A model generated the notes under the pieces. It saw nothing but the letters and a program-made list of their open reading frames with translations, did no database searches and was not told the DNA's origin. A stretch of 63,840 nucleotides of DNA, the filler included, from Octopus bimaculoides (taxonomy: Eukaryota), in NCBI RefSeq assembly GCF_001194135.2. It is 4 parts of 3 records of this genome, joined end to end, with 100 filler letters (N's around TTAATTAATTAA, not from the genome) between each part and the next. Parts side by side here need not be neighbours in the genome. Positions count along the whole stretch, not along the records: positions 1 to 18,250 come from NC_068984.1; positions 18,351 to 49,057 come from NC_069001.1; positions 49,158 to 62,015 come from NC_068984.1; 1 more part is not named here. The stretch is one strand, 5' to 3'. Positions 1,880 through 61,625 of this stretch are shown here, in pieces; position 1 is the stretch's first letter, and every line of letters begins with the position of its first letter. A program made the position numbers and the translations under genes.

Positions 1880-3660
1880 TTATTATGTGGAGGTTATATA
1901 ATGAGTCATTGTGGAGGTTATGTAATTAGTCATTTACGCACGTTTCAATCTGGCCAATGGTTTGGCAGATCTCTTCAGAATGTTGAGGAGTATGTTAAGA
2001 GTTCATGGTGTGAGAGATGTAGGAGGAGTGATTAGTGGATATATTAATGTATATGGTGGTATAATAATAGCGTTAGGTAAAGAAAGCCTTACGTTTTAGT
2101 TGAAGTTGTGCTGGTCTTCTTGTAAGGGGATGTAGGATGGGTGCTATTTAAGCTCATTATTCCGATTTTAATCGAATGCATCTCCACGTGATTTTATGAT
2201 TAAGGGATGCGTCGTATATTTATAGCACCGGCAGTGTTAGTACAGGGAAGCAACCCTAAATTTATGTGAAAAGGGGCTAACTCTGGTCTTATTCGTAATT
2301 AATTATAATTAATTATACTTAGAAGGAAAATTCTTTTATGCATATTTAGTTTTACTTAGGAAGTGTAATGTATTATATATTTAATTATACTTAGAGAATG
2401 AGTATTTAGTAGCGTGAAGACAGATTAGGCTAGATTCATATCTCCTGTTTAATAGGTCATTTTTAGCTGTTAGGATCTCGAGGCGCTCAGTTAAATAGAG
2501 TTGACAGCGTCTGTTAGTTGGGTTATAGGAATTAGCTACTTTTAGTATGTGCCACTTTAGTTTATATTCTATCTTATTGTCGTTTAGTTCCCAGATGTAC
2601 CTACTAAGTTCTGTTGAATTTGCCTTATTTCTATTTTTAAAGCTGGATAGGTGCTTATTATATCTAAGTCGTACTTGGTTTTTCGTCCCACCAATATAAG
2701 ATCTAGTGTGGCAGTTTGTTTGTACGTCACATTGGTAAACTATATTTTCGGTCTTGCATCTATTGGAGAAATTACATTTATTCCTATCTCTACAGCCACA
2801 TAGGTTGTAAGGGGGTGTCTATGTCTGTGTGTTGTTGTGTGGCCCTATTGTTTTTTTGGTGTGCGTCCCTCCTAGTGAGGGGTGTTGGATTAGGGTTGGA
2901 GTTAGTTCTATTATTTGGAGGGTTGTTGATTTGGTTGTTCGTGGTGTTTCTAGATGTATAGAATGCGTCTAATTTCTTATTATTAATAGATGCTATTATG
3001 GTAGCTAAGTTGCATGTCAGGCTGTGGCCTATTCTTATTTTGTTCTTAAATATTTCTGCGTATTTATTGTTTACATTGAGGTGTTTATTTATTATGTTCA
3101 TTAGTGAGCGGACTATGTTAGATTTGAGGTTCATGTTATAAGGAATGATTAGCCAGATCGTATCCTTATTGTTCTTGTTGCTNNNNNNNNNNNNNNNNNN
3201 NNNNNNNNNNNNNNNNNNNNNNNNNNNNNNNNNNNNNNNNNNNNNNNNNNNNNTAACTGGGAAGGCTGGTGAATTTTTCTTTACGGCTATCTAATTTATT
3301 TCTATAGTTAGGTTTATTTTTGATATGTGCCTTTTCATTTTTTTCCTTGTTAGTATTGTTAGGTATTTGTGGGCCCGATATATGGTTTCTTTTAGACTGC
3401 AGGGTCTCCCTGTTATTTATGCTAAACTTAATATTGGTTTTGTTCAGGTGGCTATTGTATTTCTGCTTCGTCTTGTTATTAGCCTTAATTGTCCTATTAA
3501 TATTGTTGGTATTGGTGTTTACACTGTTGTTGGTATTTTTGGTGTTATGTGGTTTGGCTTTTGGACCTTTTGTATTTCTATTACATGTGTTATGTTTATC
3601 TGTGTCATTCATATCGTTAGTGTGGTTTGCAGCGGTGTTTGGTGTGTTAATAGTGTATAT
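1880..3660 (-). mobile_element. Penelope-like retroelement, 3' part (RT thumb, Cys linker, GIY-YIG endonuclease, 3' UTR with hammerhead)
   Basis: Minus-strand translation gives TIWLIIPYNMNLKSNIVRSLMNIINKHL (PLE thumb region). A second frame is open from 2818 to 2381: CGCRDRNKCNFSNRCKTENIVYQC...SYIGGTKNQVRLRYNKHLSSF...STELSRYIWEL...CQLYLTERLEIL...LLNRRYE..ICLH. Confidence 0.9.
1931..1982 (-). ncRNA. Minimal type I hammerhead ribozyme
   Basis: Minus strand reads CATT-CTGAAGA-GATCTGCCAAACCATTGGCCAGATT-GAAA-C-GTGC-GTA-AATG. Complete core, 10-bp stem II with one bulge, short stem III, GUA cleavage triplet, stem I CATT/AATG. Confidence 0.85.
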
Positions 3661-4045
3661 ATATATATATACATACACACACACACATATATATATATAT
3701 ATATGCGACGGGCTTCTTTCAGTTTCCGTCTACCAAATCCACTCACATGGCTTTGGTCGGCCTGAGGCTATAGTAGAAGACACTTGCTCAAGGTGCCATG
3801 CAGTGGGACTGAACCCAGAACCATGTGGTTGGTAAGCAAGCTACTTACCACACAGCCTACCTAGTCTCATTCAATATGGAGACTGATTACCAACATTTTG
3901 AACTGGAATAATTGAAAGATTGCAGAACCTCTCACATGAAACTATTGGTAGTGTTGTTAATCCATAAATAAAGAATATATTTGTCCATCAATTGTGGTAT
4001 TGAGCACTCATACTCACTGTATGTTTTTATATATCCATATGTATA

Positions 4046-5418
4046 AGAGGAGGTACCCAAAAGAAACCGGAATTTTGCAATATTATTTTATTCACTTAGT
4101 TTTACATGATTACACATTTATCGCTTTCAAAGTATTCTCCATTTAAAGCAATGCTCCAGTCCAGAAGTGTTTTCCACTGTTTGAAGTAGTCCTGGAACTC
4201 TTGTGAAATGATGCCTTTTAATGCCTCTGTTGTTTTTTCTTCACCTCTTCCACATCTGCAAAACGTTTGCCTTTAAAGGACTTTTTATATTCAGGGGAGC
4301 AAAAACAAGTTGCAGGAAGCAAGATCAGGTGAAAAGGGAGGTTGGGTAAGTGGGGTCATGCCATTTTTGGTCAAAAACTGTTTCACACTCAAGGCAGTGT
4401 GCAGGGGTGAATTATTGTGATGAAACCACCACTCTCCACTTTGTCACTGGCAGGGATGTTTTCATCTTACCATGTCTTGCAAACGCTTCAGAACTGCCNN
4501 NNNNNNNNNNNNNNNNNNNNNNNNNNNNNNNNNNNNNNNNNNNNNNNNNNNNNNNNNNNNNNNNNNNNNNNNNNNNNNNNNNNNNNNNNNNNNNNNNNNN
4601 NNNNATCTGTGTGGACAATTCCTTTCACATCGATAAAACAAATCAGCATTGTCTTGACATTGGACTTCACTTGATGCATTTTTTGGGGGGGAGGGGTGAC
4701 ATTGAATGCTTCCATTGACTTGATTGCTGCTTTGTTTCTGGGTTGTAGCCATAGCACCAGCTTTCATCACCAGTGATGATCTTCGAAAAAAGATTCCGAT
4801 CAACTTCCAAGTGTTCTTTCAGTTCATGACATGCATTTAGTTGTGATTACTTTTGACCTTCCATTAGCAAGTGAGGTACAAATTTTGCTGTAACTCTTTT
4901 CATTTGCAATTCCTTGCTCAAAATTCATTGGCAGGAACTCCAGGACACACCAGTCACATGAACAAGTTTGTCAATTGTTCAGCTGACAGTCCTCCAAGAT
5001 CAGTTCATGAATTTTCATGATATTTTCGTTTGTTTGGGAGGTTACAGTTGCCCTAAACAAAGTTGGTCCTCAAGCGACAAGTGATCATTCCTAAAATGTG
5101 AAAACCACTTGTAAACTTCTGTTTTGCGCATGGCAGCATCCTTATAAGCTGCTTAAAGCATGACAACTATTTTGGCTGCCGTTTTCCCCCAGCAGAAAAC
5201 AGATAGGGAGCATGTCTCTTCCTTTCAGTCATCACAAAAATCGACAAACAGGGTAGAAGCACTGTCAAACAAAGATGCACCCTGTGGTAATATGACCTCA
5301 ATAGATGCCACAGGTTGGCAGATTGATGCCTGAAGGTTGGTTGCATCAAGAGGCTTCTAGCAGTGGAAGCCCGATCTACCACAGAGAACGTTTCCGGTTA
5401 CTTTTAGGCACCCCCTCG
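4046..5418 (-). mobile_element. Mariner DNA transposon, near full length, decayed, contains a gap
   Basis: TIRs AGAGGAGGTACCCAAAAGAAACCGGAA at the left end and TTCCGGTTACTTTTAGGCACCCCCTCG at the right end, both flanked by TA. Transposase remnants include VKSNVKTMLICFIDVKGIVH. Confidence 0.88.
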
Positions 5419-6295
5419 TATATCTATTTTATATGTCTATCTTTTGTTTCAGTCGTTGGACTATGGCCATGCTGGGACATAACCATGAAAGATTTAGTCA
5501 AATGAATAAAACCCAGTAATTATTTTAAAGTCCAGTACTTATCCTATTGGTCTTTTTGCCTGATTTACTAAGTCATGGGGATATAAACAAACCACACCAG
5601 TTGTCAAGTCGTGGTAGGAGATAAATGTAACATAAAGACACACACACACACACAAGGTGGAAACCCACTTCAGTTTCTGTTGACCACATCTACTCACGAA
5701 GCTTTGGTTATCCCAGAGCTATAGGAGAAACACTTGCTCAAGATACTGTGCAATGGAGCTGAACCCAAGACGACATGGTTGGGAAGTAAGTGTCTCAACC
5801 ACAGAGCCATGCCTGCCTATTCATATATAAATAGGCACATATATATAATATATATATAATGCTCATATATACAACACACATATATATTATATGTCATCAT
5901 CATCATTGTTTAAGGTCCATTTTCCTTGCTGGCACAGACTGCATGCTTTGACAGGGCCATAAAAATAAAAGGACTGTGCCAAGCTGTAATGGTTTCTATG
6001 GCTATGTCTTTCCTAATGCCAACAGCTTCACAGTGTGTACTGGGTACTTTATATGTGATATTGGCACTAGTGAGGTCACAAAGTAACTTATAAGACAAGA
6101 GTGTTCAACTGATGGGTGTGTAGTACTGAAGGAGGTGGCTTCATGTCAAGTGATATGTCAAATTATGATAGAGGGACAGAAAGCAGTAGAGAGGAGATAT
6201 GACGACTCCAGTTGGAAAAAGAAAGAAGATGACGATGAAGAGGTGTTAGGGTATACCCTCAAGTTACAGGAAGGTGAATATCAGAGGGGTAGGTA

Positions 6296-8369: not shown

Positions 8370-9650
8370 TCCACAAACTAAGAGCTGCCACAATCAATGT
8401 TGGCACAACGAAAGGTAGGTCTGGTGAGATTGTTGAAATACTTGAGTGGAGGCACGTAGATGTGTGCTGTGTGCAAGAAGTACAATGGAGGGGAGCCTCA
8501 GCTTGACTGCTTACAGGCAAGAGTCATAGATACAAGAGCCTTAAGATTAACTTAACAAAGACTAAGGTTTTAGAAAGTAAGGAAACACACAAAACATTAC
8601 CTTCATCAGGTAAATGGCCCTGCTTGATATGTAGGAAAGGTGTAGGCAGGAACTCCATATGGTGTACCCAGTGTACGCTAACAGAATGTGTTTGTTTGTG
8701 GAAGATGCACAGGAACCATAAAAGCTACAAATATTCAGGCAATAGATTCTCTCAAATGCCCCAAGAAGCTCTCTAGAGGTAGTGTACAATTTCTGTTAAC
8801 TAAGGGACCAAATTAGTAGTGGGAGGTGGATGTATGGAAAGTATAATTGCTAGAATAAGAATATGATGGAGAAAATTCAGAGCTTTTACCTCTGCTGGCA
8901 ACCAAAGGTCTCTCTCTGTGAGTGAAAGAAAGATTGTATGATGCATGTATAAGAAAAGCAATACTAAATGGTAATGAGGTGTTGGCCCCGAGCTCAGAAG
9001 ACATGCAAAGACTAGAGAGGACTTAAGGTAGTATGCAGTACATGTACAACAGAGTGCTAGAGTACTGAGTGAAAAGTTAGGTACAAGAAGAATTAGATGT
9101 AGTATGTAAGAAAGAAGACTGTGATGAGAATGGATGTAGACAGCTGTATAAAGAAGTGCCAATCACTTAAAGTGGATGGAACTAGTAGAAGATTGAGACC
9201 CAGGAAGACATGGGACAAAGTACCGAAGGCTGATATCAGGACACTGAGCCTTACGAAGGAGATGACAAAGGACCAAGATATTTGGTGCCTTGCTGTACTC
9301 AAGAAGACCCACCTACCACAGCAGAATTATTAATGCTCCCCTCCCAGCTGAAGAAATTTTTGCTTTGAAAAGCCCTCATGCTGGTTCACATAAAAAGCAC
9401 CTATGCTGGTCCATATAAAAAGCACCTGTATCAGTCCAAGTAAAAGAGAACCATGTGGGTCAACATAAAAAGCACCCATGCTGGTGCTACATAAAAAGCA
9501 TCTAGCACACCCTGTAAAGTGGTTGGTGTTAGGAAGCGCATCCAGCTCTCCAACTTGTCAGCTTTAATCAAACCATCAAACCCATGCCAACATGGGTTTG
9601 GTGGTCTGATTAAATTATGATGATGATGATGATGATGATGATAATGGTTT
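8370..9650 (+). mobile_element. RTE-clade LINE derivative, internally deleted
   Basis: APE start (LRAATINVGTTKGRSGEIVEILEWRHVDVCCVQEV) is joined to the post-RT region (KINLTKTKVL...PCLICRKGVGRNSIWCTQC...RPRKTW). 3' UTR ends in a (TGA)n tail. Confidence 0.8.
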
Positions 9651-10965
9651 CACATTTTGACACAAGGGCAGCAATTTTAGGATAGTTTATTACATTGACA
9701 ATAGCACTTGACTGGTACTTTATTTTATCAACACCAAAGCAATGAAAGGCAAAATCAACTTCGGTGGGATTTGAACTCAGAAAGTAAAGGGATAGAAGAA
9801 ATAATGCTAAACATTCTGTCCAATGCGCTAACAATTCTACCAACTCATCTCCTTAATAATTGTAATAATTAACAACTGTAATAATATTAAAAATAATGGT
9901 AGTGATAATTCTAATTTTGGCACAAGACCAACAATTTTGAAGGGAGGGGTATGTTGATTACATTGATGCCAGTACTCAACTGGCACTTATTTTATCAACT
10001 CTGAAAGGATGAAAGGCAAAGCTGACTTTGGCAAGACTTGAATTCAAAACATAAAGCCAGAAGAAATGCTGCTAATTATTTTGTCTGGTGTGCTGACAAT
10101 TCTGCCAGCTTATAGCCTTAATAATAATCATAATAATAATAATGATGGACTCTCCCATCAAAGACAACACATGAATGTTCAGCTTTTACTGAACGACCAG
10201 CACAAATGATTTGTTTATAGTGATCAAATGCATGTATTGTACATTAGCTCACTCTCTCAATCAAATCAATGTTGTCTGAACATGTACATGGTATTCTACA
10301 TGTCAAGTGCCAAAGTGATCAATGTGAAATGAAGTGATTTGGTCAAGAATACAACAAACCACCTGGTCTAGGAATTGAAACCAAGAGTGAGTGCAACACC
10401 CTAACCACTAGGCCATGATAATATTAATAATAATAATGGCTTCAAATTTTTGCCACAAGGGCAGGTTGGGGGAGGGAATTAAGTGACTTACATTGACCCC
10501 ATTGCGTAACTGATATTCATTTAATTGAGCCCGAAAGGATGAAAGGCAAAGTTGACCTCGGCGGAATTTGAACTCAGAACATAGTAGCAGACGAAATGCT
10601 GCTAAGCATTTTGCCTGACATGCTAAAGGTTCTGCTAGCTCACTGCCTTAATAATAATAATAATAATCCTTTCTACTGTAGGAACAAGTCCTGAAATTAG
10701 TGGGGAAAGGGCAAGTTGATTTCATCAACCTTAATACTTGACCGGTACTTATTTTATTGACCCTGAAAGGATCTGCCTTTAATAACAATTCTAAGTTTTT
10801 GTACAGAGCCAGCATTTTAATTGCTCAACTGGTACCTATTTTATTAATCCCCAAAGGATGAAAGCCAAAGTCAACCTTGGTGGAATCTGAACTCAGAATA
10901 TAAAACCAGAAGAAATGTTGCTAGGTATTTAGTCTGGTATGCTAACGATTCTGGTCATCACCTAA
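9640..10965 (-). mobile_element. Head-to-tail cluster of about five (ATT)n-tailed tRNA-derived SINEs (family B)
   Basis: Repeated GAAAGGCAAAGTCGACCTCGGCGGAATTTGAACTCAG units (B-box GAGTTCAAATTCC on minus) separated by (AAT)n. Other copies at ~18765-18975, 20250-20450, 22030-22530, 25545-25900, 37750-38020, 50790-50985 and 60830-61080. Confidence 0.85.
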
Positions 10966-11619
10966 ATAATAATGATGATGATGATAATACTAATGATAAA
11001 CTAATGAAAAAAACAAGAATAGTTATAATAATCACAAGCAAATTAACAAAAAAATAAAAGTAATAATGATAACAACAACAAAAGTATCAAGTGCAAAACG
11101 TCAATAAAACAAAAAAGAGAATATGCAAAATAGAGATAAGTGGATTGGTATGTGGTTATATATAATATAGTTAATCATGATGATTTAAGAATTGGGTATT
11201 ACTTAAAAAATTGTTATGGACAGAAAGACAGAAGTGTACTAGAAAATAGTACCTATTCATAAAGATTACTTATTAACATACTCTCTCATCAAAATCTACT
11301 GAAAGAGACAGAAATCATATTAAGAAGAGAAGTTATTAATAAGCATTTTAATCAATATCTACAACTAACGATCAATTCATTCTGCTTATTAAGTAGGTGT
11401 TGGCTATTAGTTGTATCAATGGTCGATAACATATTCTACAGCCACATCCAACCCCATAATAGAGAGGTCAGAATCGACAATGGACCCACTGAAGTATAAA
11501 TTTCACCCTTTTTAACTTTGGTTGCAGAACCTATCAGGTTGAGTAAAAGGTAAGCAATGTTTTGAACTATGAAGAATTTGTACCGGATTTTTGCATTAAA
11601 ACTTTTTTTTCTGTAACCA

Positions 11620-12297
11620 GACCGATCCATTTCTCAATTGTATTGTAACTTGTGATGAAAAGTGGATTTTATACAATAATAAAAAACATTCTTCGCAGTG
11701 GTTAGATCAAAATGAAGCACCGAAAACCTTCCCTAAACCCAATCTCTTTAAAAAGAAGATTATGGTGACTGTTTGGCAGTGTACTGTTGGACTCATCCAC
11801 TATAACTTAAAACCTGGAAAAACTATTACTGCAGAAACATATTGCCATGAAATTACCAAAATGAATGAAAATCTGCTACTCCACCATCCCAGACTGGTCA
11901 ACAGAAGAGGGTCAATCATTTTTCATGACAATGCTCGACCACATGTTTCACTAATGACGATCCAGAAGTTGAGGGAACTTGGCTATGAAGTTCTTTCCCA
12001 CCAAGCTTATTCTCCAGACCTTTCTCCTACTGACTACCACTTTTTCAAGTACCTTGATGGTTTCCTGTGAGAGCAGGAGTTAAAAAATCAAACTGATGTT
12101 GAAAGTGTGTTCGAAGAGTTTATCAGCTCCAGAACTCCAGATTTTTATGTTAACAGAATAAACAAACTTGAAACTCATTGGCAAAAATGTGTTGATTGTA
12201 ATGGTGCTTACTTTGACGAATAAAATTTCTGCATTGTTGAAATATATTGTGATGAATTTCAAGTTTCAAAACGTTGCTTACTTTTTACTAATATATA
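11620..12297 (+). mobile_element. Mariner (DD34D) transposase 3' half
   Basis: IVTCDEKWILYNN, HDNARPH...YSPDLSPTDYHFF, HWQKCVDCNGAYFDE. Confidence 0.88.
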
Positions 12298-12771
12298 ATG
12301 TTTTAAAGTGTCATGAGTTTCTACAGTGCATTTATAAACCACATTTTTCATCACACATGTGAGTATAACATATAGCCTATCACTGTTGGTAATGCATCAG
12401 CCCTGGACACACCACCACTAACTTAGGAAATGATTTTCCTATTCCTAGTTCGTAGAGAAGGTATAATCTCACTAAGTCTGTTACTTGCACAGGGTCTGAA
12501 AAATCCATGGTAATAGCAAAATGAATCTTATTCAAGGATTTTTCTGTCCACAATCCATCCTGGAAGAAAATTCAGATATTTCTAGTAGTATCTAAAGCAT
12601 CTATTTTCACCTAAAAGATCGTAGTAATTTTTCAAGAGAAAAAATGAGAAAGACATGACTTTATTTAAAAGGATGGAAGAGATAAATGAGTAATAGTTAT
12701 CAATATCAAACATGATATTTCTTTTATCTAACTTAATAAAACAACTAATGACATCACCAGAGTTGTCTTAG

Positions 12772-13880: not shown

Positions 13881-14479
13881 CCTTTTCTTGGGGGAAAGGA
13901 GCCATTTATGCATGATTTCGATGTCACATTCATTGAAAGCATGCAAAATAACCTGAAAAAGAAAAGACCCATAAATAAAACTCCGTTGTTGGGAAACTGA
14001 GTTTCCCAGCAACCCAACAGGTCACAGGTAGTCTAGTATTTCAACATATTTGATGAGGTAGTTGATTATCAATATAATATATACTAATTATATATAAATA
14101 TATGATGACGATGATGATATATATATATATTTATATATACATATGGCTGTGTAATTAAGAAGCTTGCTTTCCAGCCATTAAGTCTTAGGTCAAGTCTCAT
14201 GCATGGCACCTTGGTGGGCAAGCGTTCTCTACTATAAGCCTTAGGCAGACTAAAGCCACATGAATGGATATGGTTGGTGGAAACTGAAAGAAGCTTGTCA
14301 TATTTAAATATATATCTGTGTGTTTCTCCTCCATCACTGCTTGACAACCAATGTTGGTTTGTTTATGTCTGTAACTTAGTGATTTGGCAAAAGCGACCAA
14401 GTGGTAGATGGAAACTGAAAGAGTGTGTATAATTTTTGATTTATCCTCATGTTTGCATGTGTGTGTGAGTGTATAAAAT

Positions 14480-15995: not shown

Positions 15996-16790
15996 CAGAG
16001 TGCAATGGGTAAACTCACCATTTTATACTATCAATTTTGCACATGCACATAGTCTGTTTTTGATTTTGTTGACCACACAGTATAGTAGGGTCCATTGGGC
16101 ACTGTCTGTAAGAAAAACAGCACTGTAACACAATTCAATCTGCCAGAAATTTGGAAATGACATGCTGTACTGCTTGGCATTTGAGCGAGAAGCTTCAATA
16201 TGAACATCTCAGAGTGTTTGGAGTCATTACTAGTGATGGTGACATTATGCCTCCATTGATCTTCCCACACAGCCTCAGACTCAACATGGAGGCTTACATC
16301 AAATGCCTGGAGGAGGTAGTGCTACCCTGGGTCAAGAATGTGGCTGCTGGAAGATCCTATGTCTGGCAACAAGATTCTGCACCATGCCACACAAGTAGGA
16401 GAACCCAGTCATGGCTGTTTAGACAATTTCTGCGACCACATCACCCCTAACATTTGACCACCTAACTCCCCCACACTGCAACCCCTTTGATTATTATGTG
16501 TGGCACACAGTTGAGCGAGAGAGCAACAAATCTCCTTGTAACATCGAAGATGTACTGAAGGCAAAGATTATGGTGGTATTCACCAACTTAAACAAGGAGA
16601 CCATCCAGAAGATTTGCAGGAGATCCCGAAGTTGTCTGGAGGCCGTGGTTGAAGTCAATGGCAATTTTATTGAATATATTTACTCTTTAATATTTCAAGA
16701 TATTTTTATATAATTTTGGTAAATATATCTGATAAAATGAGATGTCAGTGTTATTTTCATTTTTGCATAATTTAGACGACAATATGTATA
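15996..16790 (+). mobile_element. maT-type (DD37D) Tc1/mariner transposon, internally deleted
   Basis: TA|CAGAGTGCAATGGGTAAA 5' end. QQDSAPCH...NPFDYYVW motifs. Closely similar to the 46450-47590 copy. Confidence 0.82.
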
Positions 16791-18250: not shown

Positions 18251-19019
18251 NNNNNNNNNNNNNNNNNNNNNNNNNNNNNNNNNNNNNNNNNNNNTTAATT
18301 AATTAANNNNNNNNNNNNNNNNNNNNNNNNNNNNNNNNNNNNNNNNNNNNTATATATATATATATAAAACAAACAAACACATAAGTAAGATGACTTACTT
18401 AGATTGGCGGTGGAAGGCCACACAAGAATGTTCAACAGTAGAATCCTCTGAAACCAGTGACGCTGAGCAACGGAGAAACTGAATAGAAATAATTCAATGG
18501 TAATATTTATTAAACCTTGAGGTAGAGGAGTAGCCTTCGGCAATGTGATATTGTTCTGTTGGTATGGATATTAATATATCTGAGATCCTGTTAGATAAAT
18601 AGCATGTATATTTTGAATGTATAATATTTGGTCTCTGTGGAGGTATTGGGAACTCATGAGTACTATCTACTTTTGCGATCTTCTTTTTTCTCTTGTAGGT
18701 AGCGTTGTTTCAATATAAATATACATTATATATATTGTTGTTGTTGTTGTTGTTGTTGTTGTTAAGGCAGCGAACTGGCAGAATCGTTACTAGACCGGAT
18801 AAAATACTTAGCGGCATTTCATCCGGTTTTACCTTCTGAGTTCATATGCCGCCGTCGTCAGTTTTGCCTTTCATCCACTCGGGATCACTAAAATAAGTGC
18901 CAGTTTAGAACTGGCGTCGATGTAAACGACCTACCCACTTTCCCTAAATTACTGGCCTTGTGTCAAAATTTGAAATCATTATTATTATGGTTGTCGTTAA
19001 GAGCTTTTCTCCTTTCAAT

Positions 19020-20240: not shown

Positions 20241-20469
20241 TTTTATCAACTGGCAGAACCGTTAGTAACGCCGGACAAAATGCTTAGTTGCATTTCTTCG
20301 GGCTTTATGCTCTGAGTTCAAATTTCGTCGAGGTCGACTTTCATCTTTTCGGGAACGATACAATCATTGCTAGTTGAAAACCGGGGTTGATGTAATCGAC
20401 TGAACCTCTCCCAACTAATTGCTGAGCTTGTGCCAAAATTTGTAACTATCATCACCATCATCATTATGC

Positions 20470-36227: not shown

Positions 36228-36229
36228 TA

Positions 36230-40372: not shown

Positions 40373-40406
<34 letters not shown>

Positions 40407-40413
40407 TATATTA

Positions 40414-40480
<67 letters not shown>

Positions 40481-40710
40481 CATATATATATTATATTATA
40501 TTATATATATATACATAGATACATAATACATACATACATATATACATACATACATGACAGGCGTACACACAGTCTCCATCATATTCACTCACAAAGCATT
40601 AGTCGACCCGGGGCTTTTGTAGGAGACACTCCCTTAAGGTGCCACGCAGTGGGACTGAACCCGAAATCGCGTGCTTGCAAAGCGAGCTTCTTAACCACAC
40701 AGCCATGCCG
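40200..40710 (-). mobile_element. SINE family A copy with expanded internal microsatellite
   Basis: Reverse complement of the family A head and tail around a (CA)/(TA)n tract. Confidence 0.8.
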
Positions 40711-41589: not shown

Positions 41590-42250
41590 ACCGTGACGAT
41601 TCTTGATCTTTTGTGGCATAGTATATCTAGGACAACGTTGTCTAACATCTCCCTTTTCTCAGTCAGCAAGGATAGTTGACAGCTATTTTCATAAAATTGA
41701 GTGACTGCATAGAGTAGGTGTTTCAAATTGTTTCTTTCGGTGTACCTCTTTGTCATACATATCAAGCAATGTTGCAGTACCTCTTATAAAGAATAAATTG
41801 TAAAATGATCGGCTACCATAAAACAAAGGATCTTTTTGTTGAGAACATAAAACAATGGATAATTCGTTATTAATTAGTAAAGTAATTAGTAAAGTGGAAA
41901 TCGCCGCAAAATTTTGTCTCAGGAAAACTTCTCATACAGACTTATGTATTAAAACCCAAGGCTTCACTCAGAACGCCGGTGCAATAATAGATGCAGGGTA
42001 TCGATCTGATTCGGTTTCTTCAGTGACGAATACCTCGGGCATCTTTTGTTTACCGACTTCTACATTGGAACAACTACTCTTAGCTTTGCTCAGAGCGCCA
42101 AGGATATTCATTACTGAGGAGACCAAATAGGTCGAAACATCGTGTCTGGCGGATCTACCGATATTATGAGCGAAGCCTTGTTTCTCTTCTTTCTTTTTTT
42201 CACACTCTTCTCTGTGAGCAAATTCTTTTTAACAAAATATCACAGCTATT
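41590..42250 (-). mobile_element. Probable Penelope-like N-terminal relic carrying the plus-strand hammerhead
   Basis: The QRCPR / CTAGGACAACGT segment is shared with the 24560-24620 region and with a further relic at ~43850-44170. Confidence 0.4.
42105..42154 (+). ncRNA. Minimal type I hammerhead ribozyme
   Basis: TATTCATTA-CTGAGGA-GACC-AAATA-GGTC-GAAA-CA-TCG-TG-TC-TGGCGGAT. Complete core, 4-bp stem II, 3-bp stem III, GUC triplet, wobble-rich stem I. Confidence 0.75.
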
Positions 42251-42638
42251 GCTGTTCCACATTTTGTATGCATGTTAAAAATGATATACACACCGGTGTT
42301 TTGATTTAAGGCTGTCACAAATGTGTATATTAAATTAATTATTGGTTATGTATAATTTGCTGTTAAATATAGCAGCTAAATCTCTCTCAAACATCATACA
42401 TAATATCCGAAAAAAAAAAGACTTTGGTTGATGAGGTCCTGAATTCTTGCTCATAAGGAAAGCAGGATGGCCATAGTTAGAATGCCTTTGATCATTGTCT
42501 CCTCTAAATCAGTTCTGACTTCCAAACAACAAATTTGACGATTTCTTTTTTTTTTTTTGATAAATCCTGTTTATTAACTCTGAGGCTGAACCGTTGAAAA
42601 GTAGTTGGTTGTGATTTGCTTCAATATTTCAGTATATA

Positions 42639-43521
42639 CGAGGGGCTACTCAAAAGTAGCCGGAAGCATTTTGTGGGACAAGCCTGTTGTAGTTCAAGCT
42701 TCTGTCGCTAGTAGTCACTTGATGCGACCCTCATGAACTAGTCTGCAGACCGGCGTCGATTAGAATCGTACTGCCACGTAGTGTGTCTTTGTTTTGCAGT
42801 GCTTCTCTCCTGTTCGTCAATTTTTGCGATGGCTGAAACGGAGAAACAGCATACTTTCGTGAAATTCTGTTTTCTGCTGAGAAAAATGGCGGCGGAGACA
42901 GTTGTCATGCTTCAAACAGCTTACAAGGACGCTGCCATGAGCAAAACACAAGTTTACAAGTGGTTTCCATGCTTTTGGAATGGTCACTTGTCGTTTGAAG
43001 ACCAACCTCGTTCAGGACGACCGTCGACCTCTCAAACGTCATAAAAATTGATGAACTGATCATCGAGGACCGTCACCGAACAATTAACGAACTTGATATG
43101 ACTGGTATGTCCTGGAGCCCCTGCTAATTAATTCTGAGCGAGGAATTGCGAATGAAAAGAGTTGCAGCAAAAGTTGTGCCATGCCTGCTCAAGGAAGATC
43201 AAAAGCAGTCAGGGCTGAATGCCTGTCGTGAACTGAAAGAACAGTTGGACGTTGACTCGGAACTTTTTTCGAAGGTCATCATTGGTGATGAAAGATGGTG
43301 CTACGGAATTTGCAGATGTGGAAGAGGCGAAGGAAAAAACGGTGGAGGCGTTAAAAGGCATCACTTCGCAAGAGTTCCAGCTTCGAATAGTGGAAAACAC
43401 ATCTAGGCTGATGCATTGCTTTAAATAGAGAATACTTTGAAGGGGATAAAAGTGTAAACTTGTAAAACTAAGTGGATAAAATGATATTGTAAAATTCCGG
43501 TTTCACTTGGGTACCTCTTTG
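42639..43521 (+). mobile_element. Mariner transposon, internally deleted, same family as 4046-5418
   Basis: TA|CGAGGGGCTACTCAAAAGTAGCCGGAA ... TTCCGGTTTCACTTGGGTACCTCTTTG|TA. N-terminal transposase (VKFCFLLRKMAAETVVMLQTAY...VYKWF...EDQPRSGRPST) and IIGDERW. Confidence 0.87.
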
Positions 43522-43544
43522 TATATGCTGGCTAGCACTTTGTT

Positions 43545-46118: not shown

Positions 46119-46449
46119 CATACATACACATATATATATATATATATATATATATNNNNNNNNNNNNNNNNNNNNNNNNNNNNNNNNNNNNNNNNNNNNN
46201 NNNNNNNNNNNNNNNNNNNNNNNNNNNNNNNNNNNNNNNNNNNNNNNNNNNNNNNNNNNNNNNNNNNNNNNNNNNNNNNNNNNNNNNNNNNNNNNNNNNN
46301 NNNNNNNNNNNNNNNNNNNNNNNNNNNNNNNNNNNNNNNNNNNNNNNNNNNNNNNNNNNNNNNNNNNNNNNNNNNNNNNNNNNNNNNNNNNNNNNNNNNN
46401 NNNNNNNNNNNNNNNNNNNNNNNNNNNNNNNNNNNNNNNNNNNNNNNNG

Positions 46450-47590
46450 ACATCTCATTTTAACATATATTTATCAAAATTACATGAAAGTATCTTGAAA
46501 TACTAAAGAGTAAATTTATTCAACAAAATCGCCATTGGCTTCAACCTCAGCTTCCAGACGACTTCGGAATCTCCTGCAACTCTTCCGGACGGTCTCCTTG
46601 TTTTGTTTAAGTTGGTGAATGCTACCATAATCCTTGCCTTCAGTTCATCTTTGGTATTACAAGGAGCTTTGTTGGTCTTTCGCTCAACTGCGCTCCACAC
46701 ATAATAATCAAGGGGGTTGCAGTCTGGGGAGTTAAGTGGCCAGATGTTAGGGGTGATGTGGTCGCAGAAATGGTCTGAAAGCCATGACAGGGCTCTCCTG
46801 CCTCTGTAGCATGGTGCAGAGTCCTTTTGCCAGAGATGGGGTCTTCCAGCAGCCACCCTCTTGATCCAGGGCAGTACTACCTCCTCCAGGCACTTGATGT
46901 AGGCCTCTGTCTTCAGTCTCAGGCCGCGTGGGAAGGTGAATGGAGGCATAAAGTCGTCATCACTAGTGATCACTCCAAACAACATGATGTTGCCTGGATG
47001 TTTGATTTTTATCACTCTCGGTGCATGTTTTGGGGACACGGCAAGCCAGCGGTTGTTCTGTGTATTCACCATTTGACCCTGGCAGAAACTTTTCTCGTCT
47101 GAGAAAAACCAAACCATGTTTGGTTGGAGTGGATGCTTGGGTTTGCTGAAAAGTGTGGTCTTTCCTCTTGTCCTTGATGGTTTGGGATAAAAAAATTGGT
47201 CCTTTCTCATATTCTATGCGGAATACCGAATGTCTTCATGCACTATCTGCCTGATAATAAACTCAGACGCTCTCATGTCTCTGCGATGAACCTGATTGAC
47301 TTGGAGGGATCGTTGTCAATCATGCCCTGGGTCTCACCAACAAACTCAGGAATTCTTTTCTCATCAGGAAGAGCACAGTGAGTTTTCTGAGCTGCCTTCT
47401 TAGCAGCCTCCATTTTGTAGCCATTCATACATCCGTGCATTGTGTCATCCATTATAACGGTAAAAACCGATTCCCGAGGAGAGACATTTCTTTTGACAGT
47501 AGTATGTGCAAACCTCAGCACCAATAAACGGTTCTATGGTGAAATCACAATCTTTATAAAATTATAATATTTTACAAATTGTTTTGAGTT
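46450..47590 (-). mobile_element. maT-type (DD37D) Tc1/mariner transposon
   Basis: ORF 47210-46503 carries FSDEK and KDSAPC...SPDCNPLDYYVW (37 residues between the second and third D). The N-terminal HTH piece (IDNDPSKSIR) lies in ORF 47524-47273. Confidence 0.9.
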
Positions 47591-47619: not shown

Positions 47620-48170
47620 CTCTCTCCTAGCACCCGCCCCACCCTCACCCGCCTCCAGTTTCCCCCTCACCTACCACCCCTCCACCCTACCTCTCCAGCA
47701 GACCATTCTCCGAGCCTTCCGCTGACTCCAGTCCCACCCATCCACCTTACACATCTTCCCTAACCCATCCCTTCTCTCCTTCAAACGAGCCCACAACCTG
47801 CGTGACCTCTTGGTCCACATTTTCTTCCCTACCCTTGCCTCCCAACCTAGATCCTTCCCCTGTTATCGCCCACGATGTCGCACTTGCCCCTACCTCTCCA
47901 ACGCCACTACCCTCACTGGCACCCAGCACCGTCCTTATCACACCACCGACTCCTTTACATATACTTCCAGCAATGCTATCTACTGGTTCGCTAAGCACTT
48001 CCGAGACATAAGATTTGTCAAAGACACCTCGGTCTTGCGCCACTTCCGCTCCACCGGTCATTTGCTACATCTGTCTGTGTTCGGACTATCTCTGCACAGG
48101 GGCCACCCGGATTCCCGCCTTCGTCGTGAACAGAAATTAATCTTCTTCCCTCATTCCTTTGCTCCTTAAG
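47620..48170 (+). mobile_element. Penelope-like (Neptune-type) 3' fragment with deleted GIY-YIG core
   Basis: LPLTYHP...SFKRAHNLRDLLVH, then PCYRPRCRTCPYL...FTYTSSNAIY, then SVLRHFRSTGH...RLRREQKLIF. Confidence 0.8.
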
Positions 48171-48641: not shown

Positions 48642-48963
48642 AGATGTTATTAAACCATTTATATTTTCATATCTCCTACACATGTTTCGATGGGTGCATC
48701 CAAAATACATACGGCAGGATGAATAACGGTCAGCTATGTATCAATCACTTCGGGGGCGATATAGATAACAGTACTCATCAATTAGACATTTTAACAGATA
48801 TATGACGCCCCAGAAATGTGACGTATATATATGCAAATACGCGAACATATGCACATAAACGCAACATGTATTTGACCATTATTCAGCCTGTCGGACGTAT
48901 TTTGAATGCATCCATCGAAACATATGTAGGATATATGACGATATAAATGATTTAATAGCATCT
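48642..48963. mobile_element. MITE-like element with ~95-bp imperfect terminal inverted repeats
   Basis: AGATGTTATTAAACCATTTATAT...ATGTTTCGATGGGTGCATCCAAAATAC is matched in reverse by GTATTTTGAATGCATCCATCGAAACAT...ATATAAATGATTTAATAGCATCT. Confidence 0.75.
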
Positions 48964-49419: not shown

Positions 49420-49704
49420 TTAGTCAGGGTGCCCCTTTTTAGACTTGCTCTTTCTGCTCCACCTTCTGTCTTTCTTTTCGTCATCACCGTCTTTGTCTTT
49501 TTCCTTGTCCTCTCCACTTTTGCACACTAACACTGGTACTGTGGCGTGGTGGACTATGTAATCGCTGACACTACCAAGGAATGCTCTTTTCAGCTTCCCC
49601 AATCCACGAGTCCCAGTAATTATCACGGTGGCACATTCCTCTTCGGCGGCTTTACAGATGGCTTCACCTGGTTTGCCGGAGATCTGACGTATGGTAGCGT
49701 CCAC
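49420..49704 (-). CDS. Universal stress protein (USP/UspA-domain) gene, terminal coding exon
   Basis: Acceptor ctgttcttttcttcag|GTG, phase 0, stop TAA at 49422-49420. Translates VDATIRQISGKPGEAICKAAEEECATVIITGTRGLGKLKRAFLGSVSDYIVHHATVPVLVCK..., which contains the USP signature G-2x-G-9x-GS and the C-terminal PVLV strand. Confidence 0.93.
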   Translation of the reverse strand: MDATIRQISGKPGEAICKAAEEECATVIITGTRGLGKLKRAFLGSVSDYIVHHATVPVLVCKSGEDKEKDKDGDDEKKDRRWSRKSKSKKGHPD

Positions 49705-52301
49705 CTGAAGAAAAGAACAGAGACAAAGTCTTTGATAAAGCTAGATTGGAGCAAATTAATCAAAGAGATGAAAACATAAAATAAAAAAGTTATGAGAACA
49801 GCAAGAAAAATTATCAATGGTAGAAGTTATCAACATTCATATTGTGAGATACTTTCTCATTATCTGAGAGAGATTCGTTTATTAATACAGTTAATTAATT
49901 TCCTCTGTAACAAGCGCTGTTTTTTTATGGAATAAGATACATAATAGATTGGAACGACTATTAATAGATCTTTAATCATCTCAATAACATAATGTGTTTC
50001 ATGCAAGAATAGGCTTTGACAAATTTTAATAGTTTGTATTCCTGGTTTGCTTGTACGAGTTTTGCCCGTCGCACTGCCTCACCCATCTTTCCACAGTAAA
50101 TTAACGAAAAGTTAAGACAACGTAGTTCGCATTTTCACAGAACATTCACAGAGCGAAAGAAAAAGAGTAACAAAAGAAAACACTACATAGTCATATGATC
50201 GGCACAGTCTGTATCTGCACCAACTTCCAGCAATCTTTGCTTTTACATGTAGAATCACAATTCCTGCTATTACATATATAATCATTCTCAAACAAGCAAA
50301 CACACTGACAACACTTCAAGAGCCTTACTTGAGATTTCTAGAGCATCAGCAACTGATCAGAGCTGAATTTTNNNNNNNNNNCAGAGACAAGAATCTGCAT
50401 GTCTCTAAGGCAGTCATTGTATCCTGTTTGCAAGTATTATGTTAATTAACCTAAGGGTCTTACTTTTAATGTAGTTTACAGCATTTTTGTGTGTAGAAAC
50501 AGTACTGTCTAAGATATGTGAGCAGTACCTCGATGTGAGCCTTACTTGAGATTTCTAGAGCATCAGCAACTGATCAGAGCTGAATTTTTTCTAAGCCTTA
50601 AAATGAAGCCTAAACTTTTAGGATACAGAATTTTGACGTTGTTATATATGCGAGGTTGTACTGAAAGATCAACAAGGGTTGCTAGCCCTAGAGTTTGTGG
50701 TGATTTCAGTATTTTAAGTTGTTTTTATTGCTCCGAAGTACATATGGGTGAATGCAAGTCTGTTTCCTTGAGGTGTGTGATAACTCTTTCAAATATAGAC
50801 ACAAGGCCTGAAATTTTGAGGGAGAGGGCTGGTCGATTACATCAACCCCAGTACTTGACTGGTACTTATTTCATCGATCCTTAACGGATCAAAAAGCAAG
50901 GTCAACCTGGTGGAATTAGAACTCAGAATGTAAAGCCGTTAAACATTTTGTCCGGCGTTCTAACGATTTTGCAAACACGTCACCTTCTTGATATGTGTAA
51001 TGATGGAGTTTGTTTGTTCTTTGTCATAACTCTATTAAAGGATTTTTCTAAAGTTTCTGTTCATTGTGATCACACAAACGTAAGATATGTATGTAGAGAG
51101 CAAGGGAAGGAAAATAGAAATATTTTCTGGTTAGATCTAATAAATGGGTCACTAAAGAAGAGAAGAAAACTGTGACAGAATATACTAAGATACAAATATG
51201 TTGATAGATTATGGATCAGACCAGCCCGCCAGTCATAATGCAACAGAGCATTGGAATCCATAAGAGTTTATCTTAGTTTTGGATGTTGTCAGGTCAGACA
51301 CAATCAAATAAATGTTTTATGTATGTCAAGGCAACAACAGAGAAAAGGGAAAAGAGAATGATTCAAAGTAACACAGTAGGCGACTATTTATGAGCATCTT
51401 TATCTCAGTGTTCGAAATTAGAATAATCGATCAAAGGATCAATAGTTGGCAGAGACAGAAAAGTTAACTCTTTAAAGAATGGACAAATTGTACTGTGTTT
51501 CTATACATTTCTGCAGATATAGAAGGTTTGAAGAGTTCTTTTTAAGATAAGAGTAATCTTTGGCTTACACTACTTCAGAATAATAATAAGTACATCATCA
51601 GTTCTGTTAGCCTTGGGCTAAAGTGGTCGAAGCAGGTTTTGCAGTTATCTTTGTTTTGTTTTATGGTTTCCATTTTGCGAACAATGCTATTATTATTTAC
51701 GAGTTTCCAAATAACAAATCATTGGTTCCCAATATTTCCAATGGTGACAGAGACAAGGGAACATCGTGCGAAATAAATACCAGAAACATTCTTGCTCGAA
51801 TGTACCAATTTATCGGTTTTCTCGCTGACCTGTACATTTTTTTACTAATATACATCAATGGAACATATAAACGTGTGGTGGGGTGGACAAATGGCTGGCT
51901 TCCCCAATTTTCTTTTCATTAAGGTTTATTCACAAGAAACTAGGCAAGTCAAGTCAATTGACTAAAATATTAGCCTAAGGGGCTATGAGATTGAACCCTG
52001 AACTGTATGGGGTCGGGAGAGGAGAAGTAAAATTTTTGTAGGATGTGTGCAGCCTTTAGTTGTCAAGATAAAAACGGGCAACAAATATAGGCCCCTTTAT
52101 CATTGGAAGTATTACTTGCATAGACATACTAAAAGAGCGGCAACTAGGTGAATTCTACAAAGTTAACAGGTACACTCTTAGCAAGATACCAGAATTAAAG
52201 CTCTGTTTAAAACATTATTCCAGCCAGAAGATATGTAACCAAAGAAAATTCTTCATGAAAAATCAAGAAATATTCTGTGAAGTCAAAATTGAACAACTTA
52301 C

Positions 52302-53285: not shown

Positions 53286-53354
53286 TATCTGATGAATCCA
53301 TGCAGTGGACAAGTATGACTTCATTTCCAGCTCGGTGGATGTGCTGACAATACC
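53286..53354 (-). CDS. USP gene internal exon (69 nt, phase 1 to 1)
   Basis: tcttgttttaatacag|GG TAT TGT...GAT A|gtaagt. Encodes (W)YCQHIHRAGNEVILVHCMDSSD, matching the animal USP segment W-Y...H-R-x-G-x-E-V-I-L-V-H. In frame with the next exon. Confidence 0.88.
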
Positions 53355-56156: not shown

Positions 56157-56885
56157 GTAATACATTCATATATATGCACATGTATATAGTATAACCTACA
56201 TACATACATACATACATACATACATACATGCATGCATGCATGCATGCATCAAAGGGATAGGCATATACAGTGTAAAGGACACAGTACACTTGAGAATAGT
56301 TGTATGACTAGAGATAGTTTTCAAGAAAGGAGAGGGAAAGCTTTCATGAGTTGCAACACAAAGATCAATCACGAAAACGAAGACACAGAAAAGAAAATTA
56401 CCGAAAAAATAATAACTTAGACAACTGAACTACAAAGGAAATGTATTACACGGGCTTCTTGCCAAGCAAATAGAAGACATAACAGGAGTTCACAAGGGGC
56501 TTAGATGAAATATGGAGGACTGAAGAGAGAAACAGATACCGTTATCATGCCAATGATTATGGAACTTAACAAATTACTGTTTCGGATGTGTAGCAATTAC
56601 GAGAGTCAATAATGTAATCGGTAAATATATAATGATCGCACAAAGAATTATATAAAAGAATACACGGTGGTATATGGTAAGCGATACTTTGTGACGTTAC
56701 TAGAAAATGTGAATCAAAGTAGAAGCGGAATGAAATGGTATTAGACGGTAGTTGTTATTGAAAAATTAGTATTACGGGGTCATTTGTTTTTCTTGGATTT
56801 CTCAGTGCAAACTGATCATGTTATTGTGGTAAGGAAACTAAATGTATCTAAAATATAGAGCACAAAAACTATGTAAATTCAAACA

Positions 56886-57044
56886 GGCATGGCTGTGCGG
56901 TTAAAAAGCTCTCTTTGCAACTTCTTGGTTTCGGGTTCAGTCCCACTGCGGGGAACCTTGAGCAAGCCTCTGCTAATATAGCCACGAGGCGACCAATGCC
57001 TTGTGTGTAAATTTGGTAAACGGAAACTGTGTGGAAGCCGTCGG

Positions 57045-57085
<41 letters not shown>

Positions 57086-57310
57086 TATGTGTGTGTACCT
57101 GTGTGTATGTGTGTGTGTTTGTCCCCTACTGCTTAACAACTGGTGCTGGTTTATTTACATCTTTGTAGCATAGCGGTTCCGCAAAATGGAAAGATAGAAT
57201 AAGTATCAGATTGAAAAAAAGAAAACAAGTGTTCGACTACACTCCTCAAGGCGGTGCCCTAGCATGGCCGCAGTCCAATGATGGGAGCAATTGAAATATA
57301 AAAGATAAAA
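56886..57310 (+). mobile_element. SINE family A copy
   Basis: GGCATGGCTGTGCGG...GGGTTCAGTCCCACTGCG head and TAAAAGA tail. Confidence 0.82.
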
Positions 57311-59161: not shown

Positions 59162-59165
59162 GGAT
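57850..59165. repeat. (GAT)n and (GAG/GAA)n low-complexity tract with gaps
   Basis: Direct reading. Blocks are repeated across the gaps. Confidence 0.9.
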
Positions 59166-59652
59166 GTGAAGCTGCAAATGAGTAGACTAGAAATAACATT
59201 TCTGCAAAAGAAGCAAGCTTTCGCTGTCTTTGGAATGTATCAACGAAAAGGAAATGTCAGCCGGCTGTAGTGCCACATACATTACAGAAGTGGAGAGAGA
59301 ACGCTTAAGTAAATAGCAATGCAATATGACATTGCACTGAAGAAACAACTCTTATCAGTTTACTCAACGTGTACTAATGTGTTTAGTCAAAGATTACCAG
59401 AATCTGCCAAACATTTCTTCTATTCTTCAGTTGGGACATTACAATAACTTGACAATCGAGAGGAAGACAGTTCGGCTGGCATACCAGCAGCTTCGAAACT
59501 ACTGGTGAATAATAACTCTTTCTAATTTTGGTACAAGGTCAGCAGTTTTGAGGGGAAGAGTAAGTTAGTTACATCAACCCAAGTGCGTGAAGGTAGTTTA
59601 TTTTATCGACCCGAATGGATGAAAGTGAATTCGTGTAGCTGGCCTAGTGGTT

Positions 59653-60119: not shown

Positions 60120-60400
60120 AGAAAAGCATCGATAGGCGAACTTTTGCATAACCAGTCTTTCAGATCTCTGGAACATAAACGTATGCGTGGAGATTTATTA
60201 AGTGTGTAGAAGTGTATTGTGTTAAGGGTGTACAAAAGAAAGTGTTGTAATAGTACGGAAAAAAAACCTGTCAATATATCAAACCATCACAAATATTTTT
60301 CAGTTCTAAAGAAACGTGAAACTTAGGCTTTGTAGTTTATATTTATGCCCTGAACTCAATATCCAATATTAAATAAATCGGATTATGCATCACGACATAA
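60120..60400 (+). mobile_element. Possible CR1/L2-type LINE 3' relic
   Basis: LEHKRMRGDLLSV resembles the LExRRLRGDLI motif. Confidence 0.4.
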
Positions 60401-61489
60401 TCACGTTGGCCAATAATTTTCATACACAGTACGCAAAGACACAAACAAAAATCAATACTGAAAGAGAGAAATATGCTCCAAAGCCTGTGATAAACCATGA
60501 CTAGCATATCATGATTACTGATAGAATTACCGGTGACAATACGCTTGATATTGTGCTTGAATTTCTAGTAATAATTACCTACTATAGATATTAAAAGTCA
60601 CTATACAATCAGATATTAATCTTGCATACATACAAATTGAAAAAATAAACAAATACAAAGAGTTTTAGCTGGATGTATTAACAATGTGATGATGGAGAAC
60701 AAAAGTAATCTCACTTTTATACAGAGTCTTGGTAATTCTGAGCTAGGAATTATGAACAAGATGCAACTTTATAATCCCCGCAGGTTCCCTGAGTACATCC
60801 CATACAATATGGAAACTACTAATATTGATATCAAATTTTAGCACAAGGCCAGAAATTTTGGTTGAGAGGTTAAGTCGATTACATCCACCCCAATGCTGAA
60901 CTGGTACGTCTTTTATCAACACAGAAAGAATGAAAGGTAAAGTCGACCTCGGCGGAATTTGAACTCAGAACGTGAAACATTTTGCTAGTTTGCCGCCTTG
61001 GACATGACTAATACTGGTTTCAAATTTTGGCACAAAACAAGTAATTTTGAGGAGGGGAATAGTCGACTGGTACTTAATTTATCGACCGGAGCCTCGTGGA
61101 GCTTTAGGTGTTTTCGCTCAATAAACACTCACAACGCCCGGTCTGGGAATCGAAACCGCGATCCCATGACCGCGAGTCCGCTGCCCTAACCACTTGGCCA
61201 TTGCGCCTCCACACACACACACACACACACNNNNNNNNNNNNNNNNNNNNNNNNNNNNNNNNNNNNNNNNNNNNNNNNNNNNNNNNNNNNNNNNNNNNNN
61301 NNNNNNNNNNNNNNNNNNNNNNNNNNNNNNNNNNNNNNNNNNNNNNNNNNNNNNNNNNNNNNNNNNNNNNNNNNNNNNNNNNNNNNNNNNNNNNNNNNNN
61401 NNNNNNNNNNNNNNNNNNNNNNNNNNNNNNNNNNNNNNNNNNNNNNNNNNNNNATATATATATATATATATATACAAATAATAACAACA

Positions 61490-61625
61490 GACGAGGACAG
61501 GTGGTGTAAATAACAAAAGGATATATTAGTATGACGCTCGGGAATACGGAAAGTCTTTGACGTTTCGAGCTACGCTCTTCAACAGAAAGAATACGGAGAC
61601 AAGGAGAAAAACATGATAAAAACAA
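61490..61625 (-). mobile_element. Short non-coding pLTR-like element containing the hammerhead variant
   Basis: No ORF. Contains the CUGUUGA/GAAAC-GUC motif and abuts a (TA)n tract. Confidence 0.45.
61554..61590 (-). ncRNA. Minimal hammerhead-like motif with A6U core variant
   Basis: Minus strand reads TCTTT-CTGTTGA-A-GAGC-GTA-GCTC-GAAA-C-GTC-AAAGA. Perfect 5-bp stem I, 4-bp stem II and ACGT palindrome as stem III, but CUGUUGA replaces CUGANGA. Confidence 0.55.

Follow-up and report, generated by a model that had tools for sequence, protein, structure and literature searches.

Three hammerhead motifs in a stretch of the Octopus bimaculoides genome: a Hydra-type Penelope-like element, a probable relic and a high-copy repeat with an altered core

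Hammerhead motifs and the repeats that carry HH1 and HH2

The window analyzed here is a 63,840-nucleotide (nt) stretch of the Octopus bimaculoides genome (GCF_001194135.2), four parts of three records joined end to end with filler letters between them. It is AT-rich (38% GC, 4,617 N) with many microsatellites and transposon pieces. A sequence-only reading had described three minimal type I hammerhead ribozymes in it and had assigned them to one window-wide system of Penelope-like elements (PLEs). We find three type I sites, denoted HH1, HH2 and HH3, associated with the following features:

1931..1982, minus strand: HH1, a minimal type I hammerhead (descriptor match; core CUGAAGA; predicted cut after the A at 1935)
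2381..3612, minus strand: broken 3′ part of a Hydra-clade PLE gene (4,588 relatives at an expect value, E, of ≤0.001; tblastn E 5e-32; motif tallies)
1814..2380, minus strand: putative 3′ untranslated end of the Hydra-type element, holding HH1 (from the sequence; presumed boundary)
42108..42154, plus strand: HH2, a canonical-like type I hammerhead (Rfam RF00163 and descriptor match)
41891..42038, minus strand: inverted partner of the HH2 region, now decayed (opposite arm 42098-42263, plus; nhmmer E 3e-5)
61554..61590, minus strand: HH3, a minimal type I hammerhead-like motif (descriptor match only with position 6 relaxed)
61476..61613, minus strand: window copy of the short, high-copy, non-coding HH3 repeat (read and contig depth; loose-end table)

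The sites were scanned on both strands with a type I descriptor comprising the core CUGNNGA, a stem II of at least 3 pairs, GAAA, a minimal stem III with a 0-4 nt loop, UH, and a stem I of at least 3 pairs. It matches at exactly three places in the window, with C3 at 1978 (minus), 42114 (plus) and 61585 (minus), so that the common type I topology described earlier is borne out, HH3 passing with position 6 relaxed. Dinucleotide shuffles of the window (n = 300, made in 500-nt pieces) yielded a mean of 0.04 matches versus the 3 observed; at least one match arose in 12/300 and two or more in 0/300. With A6 strictly required, two sites are left in the window, compared with one in 5/300 shuffles and two in 0/300. 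As the descriptor was composed after the motifs were known, these odds against chance are somewhat flattering. The three sites thus stand above chance, as had been claimed; the core of HH3, with a U at position 6, is altered.

Rfam recognizes HH2 only (Hammerhead_1), below its gathering score, and has no match to HH1 or HH3, and the lowest-energy monomer fold is the active shape for none of the three. These observations could suggest chance matches in low-complexity, AT-rich DNA. That explanation is hardly credible and is largely refuted by the shuffles, by the position of HH1 where Hydra elements carry theirs, by a homologous inverted partner of HH2 in which the first core box is kept, and by the preservation of HH3 across a large repeat family. 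The surroundings of HH1, HH2 and HH3 do not match one another in single-sequence nhmmer searches, which speaks against a single window-wide system.

HH1 lies on the same strand as a GIY-YIG-type frame (2384-2818), 403 nt past its stop codon. The gene reads, in order, an asparagine-rich stretch, a thumb-end region, a CxCX5C linker and a GIY-YIG endonuclease without CCHH. It carries one frameshift (near 2790-2860) and an assembly gap (3183-3255); its 5′ end has been removed by another repeat near 3650-3857, and the reverse transcriptase (RT) is missing from the window copy. Full-length RT-endonuclease proteins occur among the best 150 of the 4,588 relatives, the set used for all motif tallies. 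P0001 is a sister copy 79-89% identical to the window gene. We assign the upstream pieces, to 3612, to the same gene because the sister copy shows them joined. The long asparagine-rich, low-complexity stretches in 2793-3612 (minus) precede the thumb-end motif and the linker, respectively, and recur in P0001; in a second relative (P0084) the insert at the first site is shorter.

The CxCX5C linker is present in the window copy and in 96/150 relatives, and a CxxC between the GIY and YIG boxes is found neither in the window copy nor in any relative (0/150). The window copy retains a terminal CxH, and its endonuclease CxxC, intact in 136/150 relatives, reads CxxY. The long relatives show DKT (3/4) and RW[KQRI] (3/3) in the RT part. 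Downstream, the element ends in a (TA)n run about 120 nt past the HH1 cut site. The Hydra clade has been described by a CxCX5C linker, a GIY-YIG domain without CCHH, CxxC and CxH around a conserved E and N, and RWK/DKT in the RT, and Hydra and Naiad elements prefer (TA)n targets (PMC8557442). Since those marks define the clade in that source, and since the window element also has a hammerhead near its 3′ end and a (TA)n insertion, we class the element at 1814-3612 as a Hydra-clade PLE on its linker, endonuclease and 3′ marks. A Nematis-like label for it was considered and dropped against the same clade definitions. When one full-length relative was searched against viral contigs, none of three candidate loci was confirmed (0/3).

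The HH1 motif has the consensus core throughout (C3 U4 G5 A6 N7 G8 A9, G12 A13 A14, A15.1-U16.1, H17), a stem II of 6 pairs whose loop holds additional pairs, and a near-palindromic helix III. This is the build of the Hydra-clade motifs in File S2 of PMC8557442, in which helix III has 3-4 near-palindromic pairs. Helix III of HH1 can pair with itself over 8 bp (−8.8 kcal/mol), and pairing with a second copy would fit what the dimer model of cleavage requires. The supplement of PMC8557442 lists one Hydra element of this species, Hydra-1_Obim, with a hammerhead and a (TA)n insertion. The window element shares with it or with its clade an endonuclease without CCHH, CxCX5C, CxH near the end, the 3′ hammerhead and (TA)n. 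Unlike Hydra-1_Obim, it has long asparagine-rich stretches and is broken, here without the RT part, and its linker and endonuclease clearly differ in the alignment rows when compared by eye. A motif search of that supplement, in which line breaks may hide matches, did not return the letters of HH1. By sequence, the window element is thus a different family from Hydra-1_Obim, and HH1 a new member of a published kind.

PLE hammerheads are near-universal in some clades and absent from Naiads, and they have been described as general in metazoans (PMC4209133). The giant squid has 235 Hammerhead_1 loci (PMC6962438). PLEs make up 6.83% of an Octopus vulgaris assembly (190 families), in a report whose consulted portions mention neither hammerhead nor ribozyme (PMC13282606). 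PLE hammerheads in this cephalopod genome are expected, published biology, to which the window adds only new family members. That PLE-linked minimal hammerheads occur in the window holds; that several PLE lineages here carry ribozymes is not supported, only one lineage, Hydra, having been shown to do so.

HH2 departs from the claim that all three motifs are minimal. It follows the canonical Rfam model over all 45 positions (31 bits versus a gathering score of 34; E 0.0011 window-wide), with a consensus core (CUGAGGA), a 4-pair stem II, a loop II of AAAUA (CAAAUA in the model) and no extra base before stem II. This canonical type I build differs from the minimal build of PLEs (PMC4209133). The inverted partner of the HH2 region aligns at 101/141 identical bases, and the score of 58 exceeds that of every one of 500 shuffles (at most 41); its core box (C3 at about 42023) is still CUGAAGA, and its GAAA has become GAUA. 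Pairs of hammerheads on opposite strands, 100-700 bp apart, have been described for PLE-type insertions (PMC4209133), and HH2 and its partner are alike in this respect. In its canonical build HH2 also resembles the animal retrozymes of the kind without long terminal repeats (non-LTR retrozymes; PMC7229834; 10.64898/2026.07.22.740005). Taken together, its sequence suggests that HH2 is likely an old relic of a short canonical-hammerhead repeat. The proposal that two motifs lie in or beside PLE sequence is narrowed to HH1, the only one adjoined by detectable PLE coding sequence in searches whose protein queries were all of Hydra type and may miss remnants of other PLE clades.

A pattern scan for HH2-type motifs returned at least 126 stretches, of which 125 loci were analyzed; 34/136 matches formed a type I motif. 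Among the matches listed, none had the flanks of HH2 or Hydra-type protein matches, a result that is uninformative on HH2's own family. Eleven of the metagenome loci (L004, L016, L020, L026, L050, L056, L057, L076, L094, L097, L101) form one canonical type I hammerhead family with a 6-pair stem I, a palindromic helix III and a stem II resembling that of HH2; their flanks are unrelated to the window. A short stretch near HH2 (about 41585-41620, plus) that resembles a Penelope/Poseidon endonuclease end was supported by no search and stays without an assignment.

The HH3 repeat and its altered core

HH3 lies on the minus, not the plus, strand. It combines the core CUGUUGA with an extra base before a 4-pair stem II, a helix III that is the palindrome ACGU, and a 5-pair stem I. 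The extra base and the tiny palindromic helix III are both marks of minimal PLE hammerheads; HH1 shares a near-palindromic helix III. The minimal motifs of PMC4209133 likewise have an extra base between positions 9 and 10.1, G10.1-C11.1, an ACGU helix III and a U-rich 5′ flank, and by eye HH3 looks similar to the Neptune motif of Acropora given there in Fig. S3. The Fig. S3 rows compared differ from HH3 in that all have A6 (the core variant listed is U3-A8), and no cephalopod is among them. Because HH3 has U6 in place of the consensus A6, at a core position that is normally invariant, we file it as a variant rather than a consensus hammerhead.

To the sequence 61476-61757 we aligned, at 80% likeness, a pair of raw RNA runs together with two contig sets, one of DNA and the other probably of RNA; the RNA evidence is from raw-read runs that carry the same species label. 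The repeat is about 140-170 nt long and ends in (TA)n, the family extending some 20 nt further at the 5′ end and, optionally, some 18 nt at the 3′ end. The latter recalls the optional 30-40 bp tail of PLEs. The limits of the window copy (61476-61613) are sharp: past 61615, each RNA run drops from more than 1,000 reads to fewer than 10, and the DNA run from a depth of millions to 40-75. The repeat gathers 8,952 contigs of the DNA run on 138 bases, with a summed depth of about 3.3 million, compared with 40-75 on the flank. This summed depth is not a copy number; allowing up to 31-fold overcounting by overlapping short contigs, it gives rough bounds of about 1,400 to 80,000 copies. The claim that the motif sits in a short non-coding repeat resembling a non-autonomous passenger is borne out by these family data: the repeat is short and multi-copy and has a (TA)n end. 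Scans for the HH3 motif in metagenome, viral and prokaryote contigs returned nothing, as expected for an animal repeat.

At position 6 (61582), no letter but U reaches 4% in any of the four runs, each RNA run contributing about 2,000 reads. Among HH3 copies within 80% likeness, the family state is U6. Rarer changes that break the motif are U4 (3-6%) and changes of a helix III pair and of position 11.1 (9-13% in RNA, <1% in DNA). At the cut site the family has either C or U, with U making up 33% in the DNA run. The sequence-only reading had named stem covariation as a test; no compensatory change reaches 4% in the HH3 stems in the four runs.

A natural change at core position 6 has been described in the phage Bcep176 hammerhead, in which A6C gives a k_obs of less than 0.1 per min (PMC3088659) and strongly reduced cleavage in Mg2+ (PMC7151607). 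The phage motif has C where HH3 has U and comes from one phage locus, whereas HH3 belongs to a high-copy animal repeat; the phage motif is slow in Mg2+ and better in Mn2+. In the HH3 monomer ensemble, the open three-way junction has a probability of 0.005, and the self-duplex of helix III is worth −1.7 kcal/mol. The idea that U6 locks the core in a hairpin was weakened, as an A6 control also misfolds in the lowest-energy structure. By analogy with position 6 in the phage motif, HH3 likely cuts poorly or not at all.

RNA records matching the repeat number 2,856/12,895,792 and 2,640/11,974,664 in the two runs (about 221 per million). First mates fall about equally on both strands, and the libraries look unstranded. 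No pile-up of read ends occurs anywhere in the repeat in either RNA run, the cut site included, so that the read ends proposed for predicted cleavage sites did not appear for HH3. Of the matching reads, 81% and 79% continue into unlike sequence.

Head-to-tail joints (61608 or 61613 to 61476) occur in 6/2,856 and 6/2,640 RNA reads (about 0.2%). Together with the high RNA abundance, the modest constraint on the motif and a unit close in length to the smallest circles of PMC7229834 (170-400 nt), these could point to an active non-LTR retrozyme: tandem copies would be transcribed, their RNA would cleave in dimeric form in spite of U6, and the products would circularize. We consider this improbable. 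The joints are not alike and have unlike linker letters, as would be expected of separate tandem pairs in the genome, and about 80% of the reads run on into unlike sequence. The weak helix III duplex and the rarely open junction also argue against it, and coral retrozymes are described with canonical, not minimal, motifs. The HH3 repeat does share with animal non-LTR retrozymes that both are short non-coding hammerhead repeats, presumed to be mobilized by PLEs and commonly present as dispersed monomers (PMC7229834; 10.64898/2026.07.22.740005). Those elements are defined by tandem units and circular RNA, each unit with a complete hammerhead, which are known for neither HH2 nor HH3, and HH3 is minimal and altered in its core. 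The window holds no tandem unit of 150-400 nt and no array of hammerhead-complete units of about 150-450 bp, and the retrozyme-like unit proposed from the sequence is not supported. No joints are listed in the contig sets; contigs drop rare forms, and their absence from the DNA contigs shows nothing. In standard cDNA libraries, circles may be lost and are indistinguishable from tandem DNA.

The HH3 repeat could alternatively be the 3′ tip of an autonomous PLE of Neptune or Hydra type, itself with U6, whose insertions are nearly always severely 5′-truncated. DNA depth does fall stepwise toward the 5′ end over 61576-61615 (2.6, 1.9, 1.0 and 0.36 million), with loose ends at 61589, 61599 and 61613; minimal hammerheads in animal genomes are mostly single and have been read as truncated PLEs (PMC4209133), and PLEs take up the share of the O. 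vulgaris assembly given above. Past 61613, however, the four runs have a common loose-end consensus for about 20 nt, beyond which the DNA run, the RNA-contig run and the pair of RNA runs diverge; the window copy's own 5′ flank has a depth of only 40-75, and the Hydra-type queries revealed no PLE reading frame on the 5′ side of HH3. We regard the truncated-tip explanation as rather unlikely, and prefer a repeat copied in trans.

Searches of literature, in which those directed at U6 brought up only unrelated subjects, and of supplement motifs, where line breaks may hide matches, returned no U6 hammerhead family and no HH3 repeat; Lunse et al., the supplements of 10.64898/2026.07.22.740005, Repbase and Dfam lay outside the search and may list the family. 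The HH3 repeat with its fixed U6 is a modest variant and possibly an undescribed family.

Other repeats and genes in the window

Two further PLE remnants, one of them only probable, were found:

11331..12764, minus strand: another Hydra-type remnant, in a much more decayed state (tblastn E 1.6e-5 and 0.01; profile matches E 5e-4 and 6e-3)
47726..48169, plus strand: probable PLE endonuclease-region remnant with a CX4CXXC linker (motif in translation only; frame 47726-48166)

The first holds RT pieces, the linker and the endonuclease end, and is split by a mariner-type transposon at about 11600-12070 (Pfam Transposase_1); the descriptor finds no intact hammerhead behind it. The second is, by its translated motif, probably a Neptune- or Naiad-like PLE remnant, and the CX2-5CxxC linker of PMC8557442 fits its CX4CXXC. 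Candidate searches returned no relative of this frame (0/253 and 0/10), no Atlas match and no Pfam family, and profile comparison with the Hydra-type alignment gave 0.1%. The earlier count of at least three well-supported and two probable PLE fragments is thus reduced, for Hydra-type queries, to two by homology, both of Hydra type, and a third by motif only. Behind the Neptune-like frame lies a 91-bp inverted repeat (48642-48732 and 48873-48963, 86% alike), which may be a foldback element or a PLE end in inverted form. A fourth hammerhead was considered there, on the strength of GAAA, a palindromic helix-III-like stretch and UA, and was rejected for want of a core box and stem II.

A universal stress protein gene has its last exon at 49423-49704 (minus; Pfam Usp, E 1.6e-18), with a charged tail. 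A probable earlier exon, by motif only, lies at about 53290-53350 (minus), and the first exon was not found in the window. The HH3 repeat lies upstream of these exons on the same strand and may be intronic.

The remaining repeats are of four kinds. A short interspersed repeat is present in more than a dozen copies about 70-80% alike (9640-10980, 18760-18990, 20250-20460, 22030-22530, 25450-25880, 37760-38000, 50770-50990, 59500-59620, 60800-61060). A second interspersed family lies near 174-573, 1190-1760, 3705-3857, 5440-5815, 14145-14400, 26570-26960, 38840-39155, 40210-40710 and 56885-57280. Remnants of non-LTR retrotransposons (28440-29424, minus; 36246-37571, plus; 62932-63831, minus) were identified by Pfam zf-RVT and self-matches; from their translation we take them to be of the restriction-like endonuclease type. 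Mariner/Tc1-type DNA transposon remnants (4042-5423, 11600-12070, 16215-16746, 42634-43525, 46449-47213) were identified by Pfam Transposase_1 and HTH_48 and by paired self-matches. Rfam microRNA matches in the window are microsatellite artefacts below their own gathering scores.

A model for the movement of the repeats

The three motifs are probably parts of three unrelated repeats: HH1 likely the 3′ ribozyme of a broken Hydra-type PLE, HH2 likely a relic of a canonical-hammerhead repeat, and HH3 the motif of a repeat likely copied in trans by a PLE and predicted to cleave itself poorly or not at all. What the sequence-only reading observed is in this way partly confirmed, and its interpretation partly supported.

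PLE insertion elsewhere proceeds by endonuclease nicking and primed reverse transcription. Here, a (TA)n-targeting PLE endonuclease would nick a TA microsatellite, and the RT would copy RNA from near its 3′ end, as is established for PLEs. Minimal hammerheads elsewhere cleave slowly and only as dimers; for HH1 the prediction is that cleavage requires a dimer joined by the self-complementary helix III. The HH3 repeat would be copied in trans by such a (TA)n-targeting PLE while cleaving little or not at all, its PLE-like 3′ end presumably being what the PLE protein recognizes. Most HH3 RNA may be read-through from copies embedded in other transcripts. For a Poseidon PLE in vitro, cleavage-dead hammerhead mutants left insertion unaffected, and no RNA-seq ends were seen at the cut site (PMC11167929).

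Several observations weigh against this reading. Variable positions (≥4% in any run) are fewer in the HH3 motif (4/37) than in its 3′ flank (17/64; one-sided p 0.049); with DNA only the counts are 1/37 and 9/64 (p 0.06), and other thresholds give p 0.11-0.14. The sole common DNA variant in the motif is the tolerated C/U at the cut site, and the lower variation together with this C/U could mean that the ribozyme is still under selection. The activity evidence at position 6 concerns A6C rather than A6U. The missing pile-up of read ends is weak evidence, as the RNA libraries are fragmented cDNA of unknown selection. A search short of the whole genome found no autonomous partner of the HH3 repeat. 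The family data cover the HH3 repeat only, and not HH1 or HH2. Stem I of HH2 is partly decayed, with only 3 uninterrupted pairs, and no Hydra-type protein match lies near HH2, in a search that could not detect Penelope/Poseidon or Neptune genes.

A very successful repeat in which position 6 carries a fixed change allows the need for cleavage in spreading to be addressed directly. We propose, tentatively and as a possibility more doubtful than likely, that a PLE passenger of about 160 nt spread to thousands or tens of thousands of copies after fixing A6U, its fold kept as a handle for the PLE protein and its catalysis lost or retuned. If true, the HH3 repeat would be either a natural genome-scale test showing that PLE hammerheads are retained for a purpose besides rapid self-cleavage, or the first functional U6 hammerhead found in abundance.

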